Shown here: one piece after another, positions 2,822 through 51,673 of the stretch | How the letters are laid out: each line of letters opens with the position of its first letter | How positions within the stretch are numbered: position 1 is the stretch's first letter | Assembly (NCBI GenBank): GCA_964016885.1 | Contig: OZ024741.1 | Span: forward strand, 400,458,001-400,522,000 | DNA from: Eledone cirrhosa | Taxonomy: Eukaryota | Length of the DNA stretch: 64,000 nt | Direction of reading: 5' to 3' | Program-made: the position numbers and the translations under genes | The notes under the pieces: generated by a model | The model's database searches: none | Seen by the model: the letters and a program-made list of their open reading frames with translations, nothing else | Told to the model about the DNA's origin: nothing

Positions 2822-2887
2822 TATTTTATTATATATATTTCAGAGGCACTGAGCTATTTCATAAGTACGTCCTCATCAGATAAAATA
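2822..2887 (-). ncRNA. Minimal type I hammerhead ribozyme motif (family 1)
   Basis: rc: tattttat-CTGATGA-ggacgtact..agtgcctct-GAAA-tatatATA-ataaaata; 8-bp stem I, palindromic stem III ATATATAT, AUA triplet. Confidence 0.8.
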
Positions 2888-2938
2888 AATTGATGTCTGA
2901 CATACCTCAACTGTGCTGATGGTTCAATTCCAGTCTTG

Positions 2939-2976
<38 letters not shown>

Positions 2977-3278
2977 AAATAAATAACTCCAGTCCAGAAA
3001 TATTTCTATCTTTCACTATTTTCTTTTGATTTTCATCTTGTTAACATTGACTGGAATAACCAGATGTGTTTATAAAAGAAGAGGCAACACCCTGCTACAT
3101 CAACACAGTAGACAGAGATGTTAATTAGATGTATATTTACCATGAGAAATATTAACACTGACCATTCTAGTTTATATTTCATACATTTGACAGCTACTTC
3201 AGTTGAGCCGGGAATTCTTGCTTTCTTTTTTTTGTCTAACTTCTTGGCTGCTGTGAATATATATATATATAAACAGTT

Positions 3279-3309
<31 letters not shown>

Positions 3310-3899
3310 CCTCTCTCTCTCTCTCCCCCTCTCTCTCTCTCTCTCCCACTCTCTCTCTCTCCCTCTCTCTCTATATATATGTATATATAAATATATATAT
3401 ATATATATATAAATATTTACACATACACCAATTATAATTCTCTGGACATGCTTTACTCTATAGTATATATATATATATATATATAACAATATTCACTGAA
3501 CCAGAACAATTCTCCCATCCAATTTCTCTTGACCATTATCTTTTACTTGTCATAAAATTCTCTAAAAAGGCTACAGAATAGATTTCCAAATAAGGGCGCG
3601 GAAATTTAATGAAAACTTGTTCACGTGACAGCCATAATTTCATTTATAACCAATCAAATTACGTTTATTAAAAAAAAGCCTTTGTGTGCCCCCTTTTTTT
3701 AAGTAAAAAGAAATTCAAACACTCATATATGAAAAAAACAACCTGTGACCCCCCCTGTTTGAAGAACTTTGTAACGCGAACTGGCGCAAAATTTATTATA
3801 ATTATTGACCAACCAATCAAATTACTTCTCGAAAAACCTGGCATTTCGAGCCACTTTTTCCATATAAAACAAGTAACATTCAGAGACCAACCAGATGTG

Positions 3900-4038
3900 A
3901 GAAAAACCACAGACCCTCCATCTCAACTCTATTTTTGAAAAGCAGAAGAACTGCGAAACCGGTAAAGGAACCAAATAAATATATATATTTTTTTTTAAAA
4001 TAAGACTCCAGTTGCATTTTTGATTTCATCTTTTTTTC
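3900..4038 (+). repeat. Dispersed ~130-bp repeat, copy 1
   Basis: aaaccacagaccctccatctcaa...gactccagttgcatttt also at 6107-6230. Confidence 0.8.
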
Positions 4039-4099
4039 TTTATACTTTCACTCGTGTAGGACACCTCGGTTATTTTTCATTTTGTAAAAAAAACCTCAC

Positions 4100-47600: not shown

Positions 47601-49547
47601 TTCAGAGAAGAAACTGTCAAGAGAGCTGGACAACAGATGTTCATAGAAAAAGCTGTCAAGAGAGATGGACAACAGAAGGTCTTCAAAGAGACTGTCAGGA
47701 GAGATGGGCAACAGACGGTCTTCAGAGAAGAAACTGTCAAGATAGCTGGACAACAGTAGGTCTTCAGAGAAGAAACTGTCAGGAGAGATGGACAACAGAA
47801 GGTCTTCAGAAAATAAAGTGTCAAGAGAGCTGGACCACAGAAGGTCTACAGAGAAGAAACTGTCAGGAGAGATGGACAACAGAAGGTCTTCAGAGAAGAA
47901 ACTGTCAAGAGAGCTTGACAACAGTAGGTCTTCAGAGAAGAAACTGTCAAGAGAGCTGGACAGTAGAAGGTCTTCAGAGAAGAAACTGTCAGGAGAGATG
48001 GACAACAGAATGTCTTCAGAGAAGAAACTGTCAAGCGAGCTGGAAAACAGAATGTCTTCAGAGAAGAAACTGTCAAGAGAGCTGGACAACAGATGGTCTT
48101 TAGAGAAGAAACCCTCAAGAGAGCTGGACAGTAGAGGGTCTTCAGAGAAGAAACTGTCAGGAGAGCTGGACAGCAGATGGTCTTCAGAAAAGAAACTCTC
48201 GGGAGAGATGGGCAACAGAAGGTCTTCAGAGAATAAACTGTCGGGAGAGCTAGACAACAGAATGTCTTGAGAGAAGAAACTGTCAGAGAAGAAACTGTCA
48301 AGAGAGCTACAGCAGAAGATCTTCAGAGAAGAAACTCTTGGGAGAGCTGGGCAGCAGAAGGTCTTCAGAAAGAAACTGTCATGAGAGATGGACAATAGAA
48401 GGTATTCAGAGAAGAGACTGTCAAGAGAGCTGGGCAACAGAATCACTTCAGAGACGAAACTGTCAAAAGAGATGGACAACAGAAGGTCTTCAGGTAAGAA
48501 ACTGTCAAGAGAGATGGACAACAGAAGGCCTTCAGAGAAAAACTGTCAAGAGAGATGGACAACAGAAGGTCGTCAGAGAAGAAACTGTCATGAGAGATGA
48601 ACAATAGAAGGTATTCAGAGAAGAAACTCTCGGGAGAGCTGGACAACAGAAGGTCTTCAGAGATGAAACTGTCAGGAGAGCTGGACAACAGAAGGTCTTC
48701 AGAGAAGATACTCTCGGGAGAGATGGACAACAGATGGTCTTCAGAGAAGAAACTGTCAAGAGAGCTGGACAACAGAAGGTCTTCAGAGAAGAAATTATCA
48801 AGAGAGCTGGACAACAGAAGGTCTTCAGAGAAGAAACTGTCAAGAGAGCTGGACAACAGAAGTTCTTCAGAAAAGAAACTGTCAGGAGAGCTGGGCAGCA
48901 GAAGGTCTTCAGAAAGAAACTGTCATGAGAGATGGACAATAGAAGGTATTCAGAGAAGAAACTGTCAAGAGAGCTGGGCAACAGAAGCTCTTCAGAGAAG
49001 AAACTGTCAGGTGAGCTGGACAACAGATGGTATTCAGAGAAGAAACTCTCGGGAGAGCTGGACAATGGAAGGTCTTCAGGTTAGAAACTTTCATGTGAGC
49101 TGGACAACAGAAGGTCTTCAGAGAAGAAACTTTCGGGAGAGATGGACAACAGATGGTCTTCAGAGAAGAAACTGTCACGAGAGCTAGATAATAGAAGGTC
49201 TTCTGAGGAGAAACTCTCGGGAGAGCTGGTCAACAGAAAGTCTTTAGAGAAGAAAGTGTGAGGAGATCTGGACAACAGAAGGTCTTCCGAGAAGAAACTC
49301 TCAAGAGAGCTGGACAGTAGAAGGTCTTCATAGAAGAAACTGTCAGGAGAGTTGGACAACAGATGGTCTTCAGAGAAGAAACCCTCAAGTGAGCTGGACA
49401 GTAGAAGGTCTTCAGAGAAGAAACTGTCTGGAGAGCTGGACAGCAGATGGTCATCAGAGAAGAAACTCTCGGGAGAGCTGGACAATGGAAGGTCTTCAGA
49501 GAAGACACTGTTAGGAGAGCTGGTCAGCAGAAGGTTTTCAGAGAAGG
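14690..49547. repeat. ~35-kb satellite array, 42-bp monomer (~830 copies), with higher-order duplications
   Basis: Consensus gagaagaaactgtcaagagagctggacaacagaaggtcttca; 14-aa repeats in all frames; shorter (39-41 bp) variant monomers present. Confidence 0.98.
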
Positions 49548-50159
49548 CACCCCACTTTCCTCAAGCAAGTGTTTCGGCTCTTAATTAATGCTATTTGTTG
49601 CCTTATTGCTTCTCTTTCTACAAAATATCCTTTCATAATAAAATAATAAAATGTTAAATGAAAATTGTTACGGTTTGTATGTGGTTACACTGTCTGAGGA
49701 AACAACCACTGGGCAGATGCTATGAGCAAAACCCACCATGAGGAAACCCAGGAGTAGACTCCAGCAAGATTGTGGAATAACATCCATGAACTTGAATGGT
49801 CTCGCTTGGGGATTCAGCTGGTTGCTTTTGACTGGACTCATTGGAAGAAGTTTTTGAGGACTCTGCCCTCATGACCCTCACAGGAATATGTGAGAGAAAA
49901 AGAAGAAATGTACAAAGCAACAATTATGGTGGAAGCAGTGAATTAATTATATTGATTGGAATTTATTCCATCAAATTTGCAAGTATTTGAAATCTTAGGG
50001 AGAAGATAATAATGTCATAAATAATTTTGTCCGATTCCAGCCTACAAATTAAACATAGATAATATATTAAGGACTTTTTAGTTCTCTGTGGACTTTACTG
50101 TCAAAATTGGCCTTTTCTATTATCAAAATCACAGGCAACAAATTAGCAGGGTCATTGAA

Positions 50160-50715
50160 ATACTGAAGGTCCACACAGCTCTCAATTGAAAGTCCATGAC
50201 CAACAAACTCTCTTTGCTGCCAACAAAGAGCCCTCCACTGAAGGATCACACACAGCCCTTCACAGAAAGGCCATAACCAACAAACTCTCTTGGATTTACT
50301 ATTATCATTGCTGTTCACACAGAACTCTCAATTGAAGGATCACTTAAAACCCTCCATTGAAGTGTCACACAGAGCCCTCCATTGAAATGTCGCATAGAGC
50401 CCCCATTGAGGGTCGCACAGAGCCCTCCATTAAAGGGTCACACAGAGCTCTCCATTGAAAGGTCGCACAGAGGCCTCCAATGAAGGGTTGCACAGATTCC
50501 CCCATTGAAGGGTTGCACAGAGCCCTCCATTGAAGGGTCACACAGAACCCTTCATTGAAGGGTCACTTAAAACCCTCCATTGAAGGGTTGCACAGCACCC
50601 TCCATTGAAGAGTCACTTAGAACCCTCCATTGAAGGGTCACACACAGCCCTCCATTGAAGGGCCATAACCAACAAACTTTTTTGTATTTACTATTGTCAT
50701 TGTTGTTTACACACA
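50160..50715. repeat. 24-bp minisatellite (cacagagccctccattgaagggtc) inside a nested larger duplication
   Basis: ~14 copies at 50320-50662; spacer ggccataaccaacaaact...tttactatt..cattg at both ~50270 and ~50661. Confidence 0.88.
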
Positions 50716-50819
50716 ACCCCATAAAATTTCCTTAGCTTCCAGATTCTGCGCTGTAAAAGAATTATATTACTCACCCCAGACGAACCGTAAGGCTGATCTT
50801 ATTGTGTTTGTAAGGGGGT

Positions 50820-50997
50820 GGTGATGAATTGGCAAAATAGTGTCCATGAAATACACTGAAATATTTCATTATGACCTTCTACTGTTTGATTTCAAATCCC
50901 ACTGAAGTCAACTTTTCATGCTTCAGAGATCAATAAAATAAAGTACCAGTCAAGTACTGGGGTTGATATAATCAACTTTCCTTTCTCCCTAAAATGT
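50820..50997 (+). mobile_element. Degenerate SINE family B
   Basis: ttcaaatccc, aataaaataaagtaccagtcaagtactggggttgat. Confidence 0.7.
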
Positions 50998-51194
50998 TAG
51001 AATAGAATGGTTGAATAGCAAGTGAAATGAGACATGAAACTCCTTGTTCTCGGTAGTCTGAGATTGTGTTAGTGTAGAACCTGTAACAAATACTAGCATT
51101 CCTTTAAAAGATGAATGATGGCATTCCTTTACTACAGACTTGTTATGGAACTGATCAGTAGAAAACATACTTCTGGTGAGGTGGGTAACAGGAC

Positions 51195-51673
51195 CGTACA
51201 GTGTTTAGCAACCATCGTTGCCCTTTTTGTCCAACACTGACAAAGGAACAATGTACTAGTTTCAAGCTTATTAGCTATCGTCAGCACCGTATACCTTCCT
51301 GCCAGATGATTGAACGTCTGAAAGTATATACTTTCCTTATGCATATTAACGGCTTAATTCAGGATGTTTGTTTACAAACACACCGAGCATTATAATAAAT
51401 GTTCGGTGAATCCATACGTACATATATATATGTGTGCATGTATGTATAAATATACATGCTACTGTACGTCTGTATATATATATGTATGTACGTATACATA
51501 CTTATATTTAAGTAACAGCCATACTAAGAGTGAGAAATGAAATTTCGTTTCATTTTTTCCATTTATCGTTTTCGGTGCGCCCGGCCGATTAACTCACTCG
51601 ATATGCAAATTAGGCTACTCAGCCGTTAATATGCATAAGGAAAGTATATACTTTCAGACGTTCAATCATCTGG
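51195..51673. mobile_element. Second copy of family 5 hammerhead element with a different inversion breakpoint
   Basis: Homologous to 13515-13960 and 12640-12700; 51302-51354 is inverted at 51621-51673. Confidence 0.85.
51248..51290 (-). ncRNA. Minimal type I hammerhead motif (family 5)
   Basis: rc: acggtg-CTGACGA-tagctaataagctt-GAAA-ctaGTA-cattgt; stem I maintained through G-U pairs. Confidence 0.85.

Follow-up and report, generated by a model that had tools for sequence, protein, structure and literature searches.

The 64,000-nt stretch of the Eledone cirrhosa genome examined here (assembly GCA_964016885.1, contig OZ024741.1, positions 400,458,001 to 400,522,000 of the forward strand; hereafter the window) carries ten motifs which are very probably type I hammerhead ribozymes (HHRs) at the terminal repeats of Penelope-like elements (PLEs). 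The motifs fall into five families. Those of families A, B and D would mark the ends of elements encoding a reverse transcriptase and endonuclease (RT-EN), those of C and E belong to units lacking an open reading frame (ORF) which were likely mobilised by such elements, and cleavage is predicted to occur only in dimers. The anatomy of the insertions, their linkage to RT-EN ORFs, the preference for particular targets and the conservation of structure were observed directly.

Hammerhead motifs

On inspection of the sequence all ten motifs proposed in the initial annotation were present at their coordinates and strands (Table 1), the palindromes or near-palindromes of stem III were as claimed, and so was the CCGAAGA core of the pair at 12.5 kb (12473 and 12530). 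The division into five families was also correct: A (2822, 5740 and 5911), B (4279), C (8280 and 8858), D (12473 and 12530) and E (13568 and 51248). Nine motifs do lie within the first 14 kb, and they represent six insertions because three of these are inverted pairs.

Eight of the ten possess the core CUGANGA and two CCGAAGA, as expected of type I hammerheads; CYGANGA is an accepted search descriptor for hammerhead cores (PMC13481778). The canonical G10.1-C11.1 pair is found in none of the ten (G·U in A and B, C×A in C, A×G in D, U×U in E) and is present in some genomic copies of family B. We considered these non-canonical pairs as a novelty and rejected the idea, since U·U and G·U occur in Hydra rows and C×A in a PLE-X row of File S2 of Craig et al. 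(2021). Judged by their sequences, the ten motifs appear to be real hammerheads at PLE insertion ends, that is, pseudo-long terminal repeats (pLTRs), within (TA)n.

A relaxed structural scanner recovered nine of the ten, missing that at 5911 because of a G-to-A change in its stem II; this motif is visible in the sequence directly. The dinucleotide-shuffle control suggested with the initial annotation yielded no match in 600 shuffles of the 28,990 non-satellite bases of the window. A looser scanner found eight motifs in the first 14.55 kb, none in 99 of 100 shuffles and one match in the remaining shuffle. The arms form long inverted repeats and no hammerhead is returned by Rfam, so that one might regard the motifs as chance matches inside fold-back DNA transposons (miniature inverted-repeat transposable elements, MITEs). 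The empty shuffles, the equally empty reversed-pattern controls, the covariation and the linkage to RT-EN ORFs refute this explanation, to which we attach practically no weight.

Coding elements of families A, B and D

Full-length units of families A, B and D were found at other loci of the genome. Each has the order HHR, 5' untranslated region (UTR), RT/EN ORF, 3' UTR of 1.2–1.9 kb, HHR. Family D has an intact ORF of 818 aa between two HHRs 4,172–4,190 bp apart at two loci (L202 and L203), whose ORFs differ at 18 of 2,454 nt. The ORF is broken in the full units of family A (L279, HHR spacing 4,543 bp) and family B (L276, 4,097 bp); L155 is a further near-full copy of family A. The 3' UTR measures about 1.8–1.9 kb in A, 1.2 kb in B and 1.4–1.5 kb in D, and the distance from EN to HHR in four loci of family A is 1.78–1.94 kb. 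ORF pieces of A and B are 38–55% identical to the D protein. The initial annotation had called the whole system non-autonomous; this stands for families C and E, which have no ORF, and not for A, B and D, whose motifs we read as 5'-truncated or inverted ends of RT-EN elements bearing Hydra-clade motifs.

Based upon 113 homologues, an AlphaFold model of the D protein reached a predicted local distance difference test (pLDDT) score of 86.9, and its top three matches in the PDB are telomerase RTs, as expected of a telomerase-like RT. A model from the single sequence (pLDDT 31.9) was discarded. The motifs of the Hydra clade, as defined in section 11 of PMC8557442, are present as ADKT, RVRWR (R for K), CNCRANRTC [CxCX5C], CNLCILE [CxxC-E] and CQH [CxH], and a regular expression for the CCHH finger gave no match in this protein. 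The family A protein possesses DKT and CxCX5C. Argonauta hians is the sole named source among the 120 listed homologues of the D protein.

Tandem units, an inverted 5' copy and a one-sided tail, the features of a pLTR, occur in L202, L203, L276 and L279 and in the arms within the window. Such inverted and tandem arrangements are typical of PLEs (Craig et al. 2021, PMC8557442), and the fold-back and permuted shapes of the window insertions are these known signatures, the inverted 5' copy and the tandem units. The family A fragment at 2822 is 82% identical to the 3' end of L155, and the family B fragment at 4279 is 97.7% identical to both HHR ends of L276. The inverted arms of the family A insertion at 5599–6022 are 96% complementary to each other and 96–98% identical to L155, to whose 5' UTR the tail maps. 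Over 267 bases the left arm of the family D insertion matches L203 at 99.6% identity, and it extends across the 5' UTR, stopping 45 bases short of the ATG. In this family 256 nt separate the ATG from the predicted cleavage site upstream of it, and the 5' UTR contains both end points.

Copies were compared among the 30 best BLAST loci per family, a choice which favours young copies. The HHR is followed by a fixed end, beyond which lies (TA)n or else a tail or the next unit, in 24 and 6 copies, respectively, for A, 17 and 13 for B, 20 and 10 for C, and 17 and 10 for D, the latter with three others. Inverted upstream copies are common among these loci, and insertion into (TA)n is as in the Hydra clade.

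Families C and E

Family C consists of a closed 526-bp tandem unit (longest ATG ORF 53 aa, GC 35%) and family E of a closed 445-bp tandem unit (73 aa, 38%). Arrays of 3–5 units exist for each, those of C in L284 and those of E in L128, L255 and L257. Their copies have the inverted copy, the one-sided tail and the (TA)n flanks seen in A, B and D. Being tandem, without an ORF, with a type I HHR and with GC below 45%, these units appear to fit the non-LTR retrozymes, and we infer that they were likely mobilised by PLE-type elements. As regards the loop 1–loop 2 tertiary contact of retrozyme hammerheads, stem I of family E can be extended by eye with a 5' bulge; the minimum-energy fold differs.

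Pairing between copies

For covariation 14 variants were picked by hand from the 21 listed stem II types of the A/B kind. In 12 of the 16 pairs both partners change, and none of 500 shuffles scored as high. At the fourth position of stem II none of the 14 variants forms a pair, and 17 of 22 types have C×C there. The innermost pair of stem III covaries despite having no loop, which fits pairing between two copies. A check free of scanner bias is offered by family D, in which stem III is ACAGCTGT, ACAGTTGT or ACAATTGT, all palindromic, in 29 of 30 BLAST copies. For all ten motifs the modelled active dimer lies 11.6–16.8 kcal/mol below two active monomers, and the HHRs are predicted to cleave only as dimers. 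These results support the earlier proposal of type I hammerheads of the PLE or retrozyme kind, with palindromic stem III and probable pairing between two copies.

The fold-back copies of the window would place sense and antisense HHRs in one long hairpin (predicted at 93 bp for D and 161 bp for A). Since such hairpins would sequester the ribozyme, these copies are likely to be inert by-products.

An older subfamily of family D has a stem II which is itself a perfect palindrome. There the two bases past A9 vary widely between copies and the opposing AA is constant.

Abundance and targets

Strict patterns, whose counts are lower bounds, gave 3,931 matches for A, 6,992 for B, 1,512 for C, 5,275 for D and, as exact 35-mer matches, 3,622 for E; the reversed-pattern control was 0 for each. 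Overall density was estimated from 40 ten-kb blocks (400 kb) placed at round positions along 22 large contigs without weighting by length; small contigs were not included. The looser scanner found 27 motifs, with 0–4 in each block, whereas five shuffles of the blocks gave 0. This corresponds to about one HHR per 15 kb or, as a rough figure from a 400-kb sample, some 200,000 in 3.0 Gb. A second scanner admitting U3-A8 cores gave 32 motifs and a bootstrap range of 140,000–345,000 genome-wide; it was run without a shuffle control and one or two of its matches look spurious. With other descriptors, 126,247 HHR motifs were reported for the axolotl (PMC7229834), in 28 Gb (Li et al. 2026), and about 9,000 minimal motifs for Xenopus tropicalis (PMC4209133). 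The sampled blocks (L213–L252) and other loci also hold at least 10 further hammerhead types absent from the window, some with odd-length stem III palindromes.

The high local density claimed for the window is correct in that its first 14.55 kb, with 5.5 HHRs per 10 kb, exceeds every sampled block (maximum 4). The load is nonetheless genome-wide and follows the (TA)n islands: across blocks the two counts are correlated (Spearman 0.50, p 0.001). Such islands number 12.4 per 10 kb in the first 14.55 kb, whereas the sampled blocks average 5.2. The first 14.5 kb is the (TA)n-rich upper tail of a genome-wide HHR load.

The initial annotation went further and tied a locally dense, wholly non-autonomous ribozyme-retroelement system to a neighbouring RT remnant (7701–8090). 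The eight scanner matches in 14.55 kb and the lack of ORFs in C and E agree with that view. Families A, B and D are nevertheless the ends of coding elements, the matches of each family are dispersed by the thousands, and HHR number varies with the islands; the genome-wide counts largely refute a local system, which we regard as very improbable. Nor is the remnant shown to be its driver, because tblastn and blastp gave no significant match between it and the D protein, and because the hammerhead whose start it bears is a different one. From the alignment in the supplement of Craig et al. (2021) it reads as Neptune-like, Pfam assigns no family to it, and its sequence does not establish it as parent of any of the five families. 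The decayed motif at 6381–6412 has a 5' flank in common with the sequence joined to this remnant (7701–7760, minus strand).

Points against the assignment

Several observations weigh against the view that these are HHRs of PLEs and of units moved by them. The proposed Rfam check fails on the window: of 81 matches at E≤5, none is a hammerhead. Because the variants are related, and were found by a scanner that accepts only paired stems and a palindromic stem III, their covariation score is inflated. The active dimer lies above the lowest-energy cofold, by 0.2–0.6 kcal/mol for D and the motif at 13568 and by 2.7–6.7 kcal/mol for the others. Pfam finds no family in the D protein, and a PDB profile search with its sequence gives a weak retron RT match alone (E 0.02). 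The EN motifs of this protein (VIYS..TYVG, CxxC-E and CxH) are likewise without a Pfam match, PF01541 appearing on one of the 120 listed homologues; the putative assignment to the GIY-YIG endonucleases is thus made on motifs. Motifs, and not a tree including reference Hydra proteins, also place the A, B and D elements in the Hydra clade, and their units of 4,097–4,543 bp exceed the descriptive, non-strict length of <3 kb for that clade because of their long 3' UTRs. Finally, insertion in vitro was unaffected in HHR mutants of the PLE Poseidon-Ac (PMC11167929).

The remaining difficulties concern C and E. The 3' end of family E is less sharp, with 11 of 30 copies running into the next unit and most others fading into TA-rich sequence. 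No autonomous parent of either family was found in 30 loci each or in larger regions and wide pairs (L170, L171, L253–L257, L283 and L284), in a genome search which scored the best 40 candidates and which a diverged parent could escape. Both facts would suit satellite-like repeats spread by amplification of DNA, or by another retrotransposon, instead of by PLE proteins. Against this, both families are scattered across numerous contigs as short arrays and have the inverted 5' copies, (TA)n flanks and one-sided tails of A, B and D, and the U×U at the base of stem II of E matches 14 of 26 Hydra-clade rows in File S2 of Craig et al. (2021). We consider this origin of C and E unlikely and retain that by PLE-type mobilisation.

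The U4C core of family D

Genome-wide the core of family D is CCGAAGA in 5,275 matches, the canonical CTGAAGA in 68 and the core-breaking CCAAAGA (G5A) in 73, the last two patterns having required four stem I bases in addition. On these counts we rejected U4C as a product of decay; it is rather the U4 copies which resemble neutral decay at a CpG. D subfamilies whose EN-coding DNA is 85–100% identical have C4 in common. A sister family with 62% protein identity to D (L214/L268; unit of about 5.6 kb, 2.7-kb 3' UTR) has a U3-A8 core. U4C is not unprecedented, as we had also considered, being known from PMC13481778 and from PMC3088659, where its activity in vitro was considerably lower and viroid infectivity was still allowed. 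We found no literature report of U4C fixed in a PLE family, and it occurs in none of the 26 Hydra rows of File S2 of Craig et al. (2021). A single fixed site is not proof of selection.

At five D loci (L258–L262, 10 of the 73 G5A matches) the G5A change is present twice, on each arm or in each tandem copy, the arms being 95–100% identical, as against one locus with such a doubled U4 among the 68 U4 matches. Either a dead ribozyme was still copied at these loci or gene conversion took place.

The elements might be PLEs as described that transpose without any need for cleavage, the HHR fold being retained as a slow switch or as a structural signal for the binding of protein or for initiation by the RT. 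Family D has multiplied with a core described as lowering activity in vitro, the double G5A loci outnumber the double U4 locus, and the Poseidon-Ac mutants mentioned above still insert. On the other hand the remaining core positions are all kept, the stems covary across families, G5A is found in merely 73 matches against 5,275, and the double G5A loci could be due to gene conversion; the compensated U3-A8 core of the sister family points to selection on catalytic geometry. Dispensable cleavage is in our opinion possible and rather doubtful, and we prefer PLE hammerheads that are predicted to cleave as dimers. On a further reading, which we hold possible but less likely than not, the some 200,000 PLE hammerheads, far denser than those of the axolotl, together with a Hydra sub-lineage that has left the canonical core (U4C fixed across subfamilies 14% diverged in an intact family that has multiplied recently, U3-A8 in the sister) would mean selection for a slowed ribozyme gated by dimer formation or by protein.

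Proposed mechanism

In PLEs of this kind a tandem transcript would be bound by the RT-EN protein, and the endonuclease would nick (TA)n. Target-primed reverse transcription might then begin beyond the HHR, at either of two sites, and so generate the end and the tail, and truncation and inversion would give rise to the fold-backs. Two HHR copies, in a tandem transcript or held by protein, would pair through their palindromic stem III so that the RNA is cut into units; units of C and E possibly become circles after cutting. The basis for target-primed reverse transcription, two initiation points and cleavage assisted by dimers or proteins is found in PMC11167929 and PMC6765202.

Comparison with known systems

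Like the Hydra-clade PLEs (PMC8557442), which include Hydra-1_Obim of Octopus bimaculoides, these elements have a single ORF for RT and a C-terminal EN with DKT, RW(K/R), CxCX5C and CxxC/CxH and no CCHH, target (TA)n, and form tandem and inverted copies with a tail. Their HHR likewise lies near the 3' end, has a non-canonical 10.1–11.1 pair and a stem III that is a 4-bp palindrome, and is predicted to be cut after A or U. Unlike Hydra elements of <3 kb, the units here are 4.1–4.5 kb with 3' UTRs of 1.2–1.9 kb, the tails are about 60–170 nt as against 30–40 bp, and family D has the U4C core. The HHR of Hydra-1_Obim in File S2 is unlike all five window families in sequence. Short motifs of families A, C, D and E were not found in the supplement of Craig et al. 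(2021), a search that did not include family B.

The minimal PLE HHRs of Cervera and de la Peña (2014, PMC4209133) are also of type I with a palindromic stem III region and depend on dimers, which is here predicted; they too come in many families per genome, mostly as solo motifs or opposite-strand pairs from truncated PLEs. The U3-A8 variant is common to both, here in the sister family. In their consensus an additional base lies between 9 and 10.1 and the G10.1-C11.1 pair is conserved, a combination that the window motifs, with G·U, C×A, A×G or U×U at the base of stem II, do not match; the stem III palindrome of the window motifs is also longer (6–10 nt).

With the non-LTR retrozymes of Cervera and de la Peña (2020, PMC7229834), families C and E share tandem units without an ORF, one type I HHR per unit and a GC of 35–38%, and family E shares the U×U at the base of stem II with the axolotl HHR_Amex2. 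The units of C and E are longer than the norm of about 300 bp and carry explicit PLE marks (inverted 5' copy, tail, (TA)n). Retrozymes have been proposed to be non-autonomous derivatives of PLEs, descended from their ends (Li et al. 2026, bioRxiv 10.64898/2026.07.22.740005).

The PLE Poseidon-Ac (Frangieh et al. 2024, PMC11167929) resembles the present elements in that its tandem units carry an HHR ahead of the ORF, its tail is delimited by two end points located downstream, and its targets are AT-rich. Its start codon lies inside the HHR, in contrast to that of family D.

As regards hammerheads in octopus, Craig et al. (2021) is the sole relevant report we found in the literature; Lünse et al. 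(2017) may cover these motifs. Octopus is unmentioned in the main text of PMC7229834, as are ribozymes in the main text of the 2026 repeat annotation of Octopus vulgaris (PMC13282606).

Other features of the window

A 42-bp satellite forms a 35-kb array with more than 750 matches in register and no hammerhead motifs within it. The non-LTR retrotransposon RT at 9520–11774 has an RVT_1 domain and a PHD finger in a 607-aa open frame; we take it to be RTE-like. Broken Helitron-like Rep/PIF1 helicase ORFs (PIF1 and Pif1_2B domains) lie towards the right end. The long fold-back element at 6510–7240, with arms 93–99% complementary and without a hammerhead, matches two other examined loci only and is possibly a MITE. 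Past the end of the window by 3–5 kb there is a broken Hydra-like PLE ORF of another family (L176 5340–7135, minus strand).

Table 1. Coordinates of the hammerhead insertions and other features in the window, and of U3-A8 cores at other loci
Position	Strand	Feature	Remarks
2822..2887	-	Family A type I HHR, older subfamily	Solo 3' end fragment (~2777-2940) of Hydra-like PLE, (TA)n-flanked
4279..4333	+	Family B type I HHR	3' end fragment (~4165-4385) of Hydra-like PLE, (TA)n-flanked
5599..6022	.	Family A insertion	Inverted 5' copy with ~100-nt tail and direct 3' end
5740-5806	-	Family A HHR	In insertion 5599..6022
5911-5977	+	Family A HHR	In insertion 5599..6022
6381..6412	+	Decayed eleventh hammerhead-like motif	Seen directly; fails scanners
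6510-7240		Fold-back element	
7701..8090	-	PLE RT remnant of other lineage, LPKLHK..PGRPIVS type	Joined to truncated hammerhead start
8226..9113	.	Family C insertion, non-autonomous	Inverted full 526-bp unit, partial unit and ~120-nt tail
8280-8362	-	Family C HHR	Triplet GUU; C×A at stem II base
8858-8940	+	Family C HHR	Triplet GUU; C×A at stem II base
9520-11774	-	Non-LTR retrotransposon RT	
12269..12616	.	Family D insertion	Perfect fold-back of autonomous Hydra-like PLE pLTR; ~167-nt tail on left arm
12473-12519	-	Family D U4C HHR	
12530-12576	+	Family D U4C HHR	
12639..13967	.	Family E insertion, non-autonomous	Inverted unit with tail and direct partial copy; unrelated repeat nested at ~12729-13338
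13568-13610	-	Family E HHR	In insertion 12639..13967
14550-49560		42-bp satellite	
51194..51673	.	Second family E insertion	Inverted piece and piece crossing unit junction
51248-51290	-	Family E HHR	In insertion 51194..51673
54700-55475		Tandem array	39-bp unit, ~20 copies
58667-62751	+	Helitron-like helicase ORFs	
L214 7082	+	U3-A8 core TTGATAA	Hydra-like family
L268 3660	+	U3-A8 core TTGATAA	Hydra-like family
L272 1062	-	U3-A8 core TTGATAA	Hydra-like family

Significance

The finding is mostly known biology (Cervera and de la Peña 2014; Craig et al. 2021; Li et al. 2026). The new details are the U4C core fixed in some 5,300 D copies, the conserved C×C mismatch in stem II, the long 3' UTRs and tails, and the very high HHR load. 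This load and the fold-back copies, which if transcribed would give long double-stranded RNA, are relevant to the annotation of this genome; the elements matter there because neither Pfam nor Rfam detects them.

The function of the HHR in PLEs has been called unclear (PMC8557442), and the ribozyme was found dispensable for insertion in vitro (PMC11167929). Family D offers in one genome an RT-EN element that is young and intact and whose core is non-canonical, together with naturally occurring U4 and G5A variants and with probable passengers that are non-autonomous. Because of this combination of intact element and natural variants, the question why PLEs keep a hammerhead becomes directly testable. 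If the ribozyme is gated as suggested above, family D would provide a natural intact element with which to probe the role of the hammerhead in PLE transposition.

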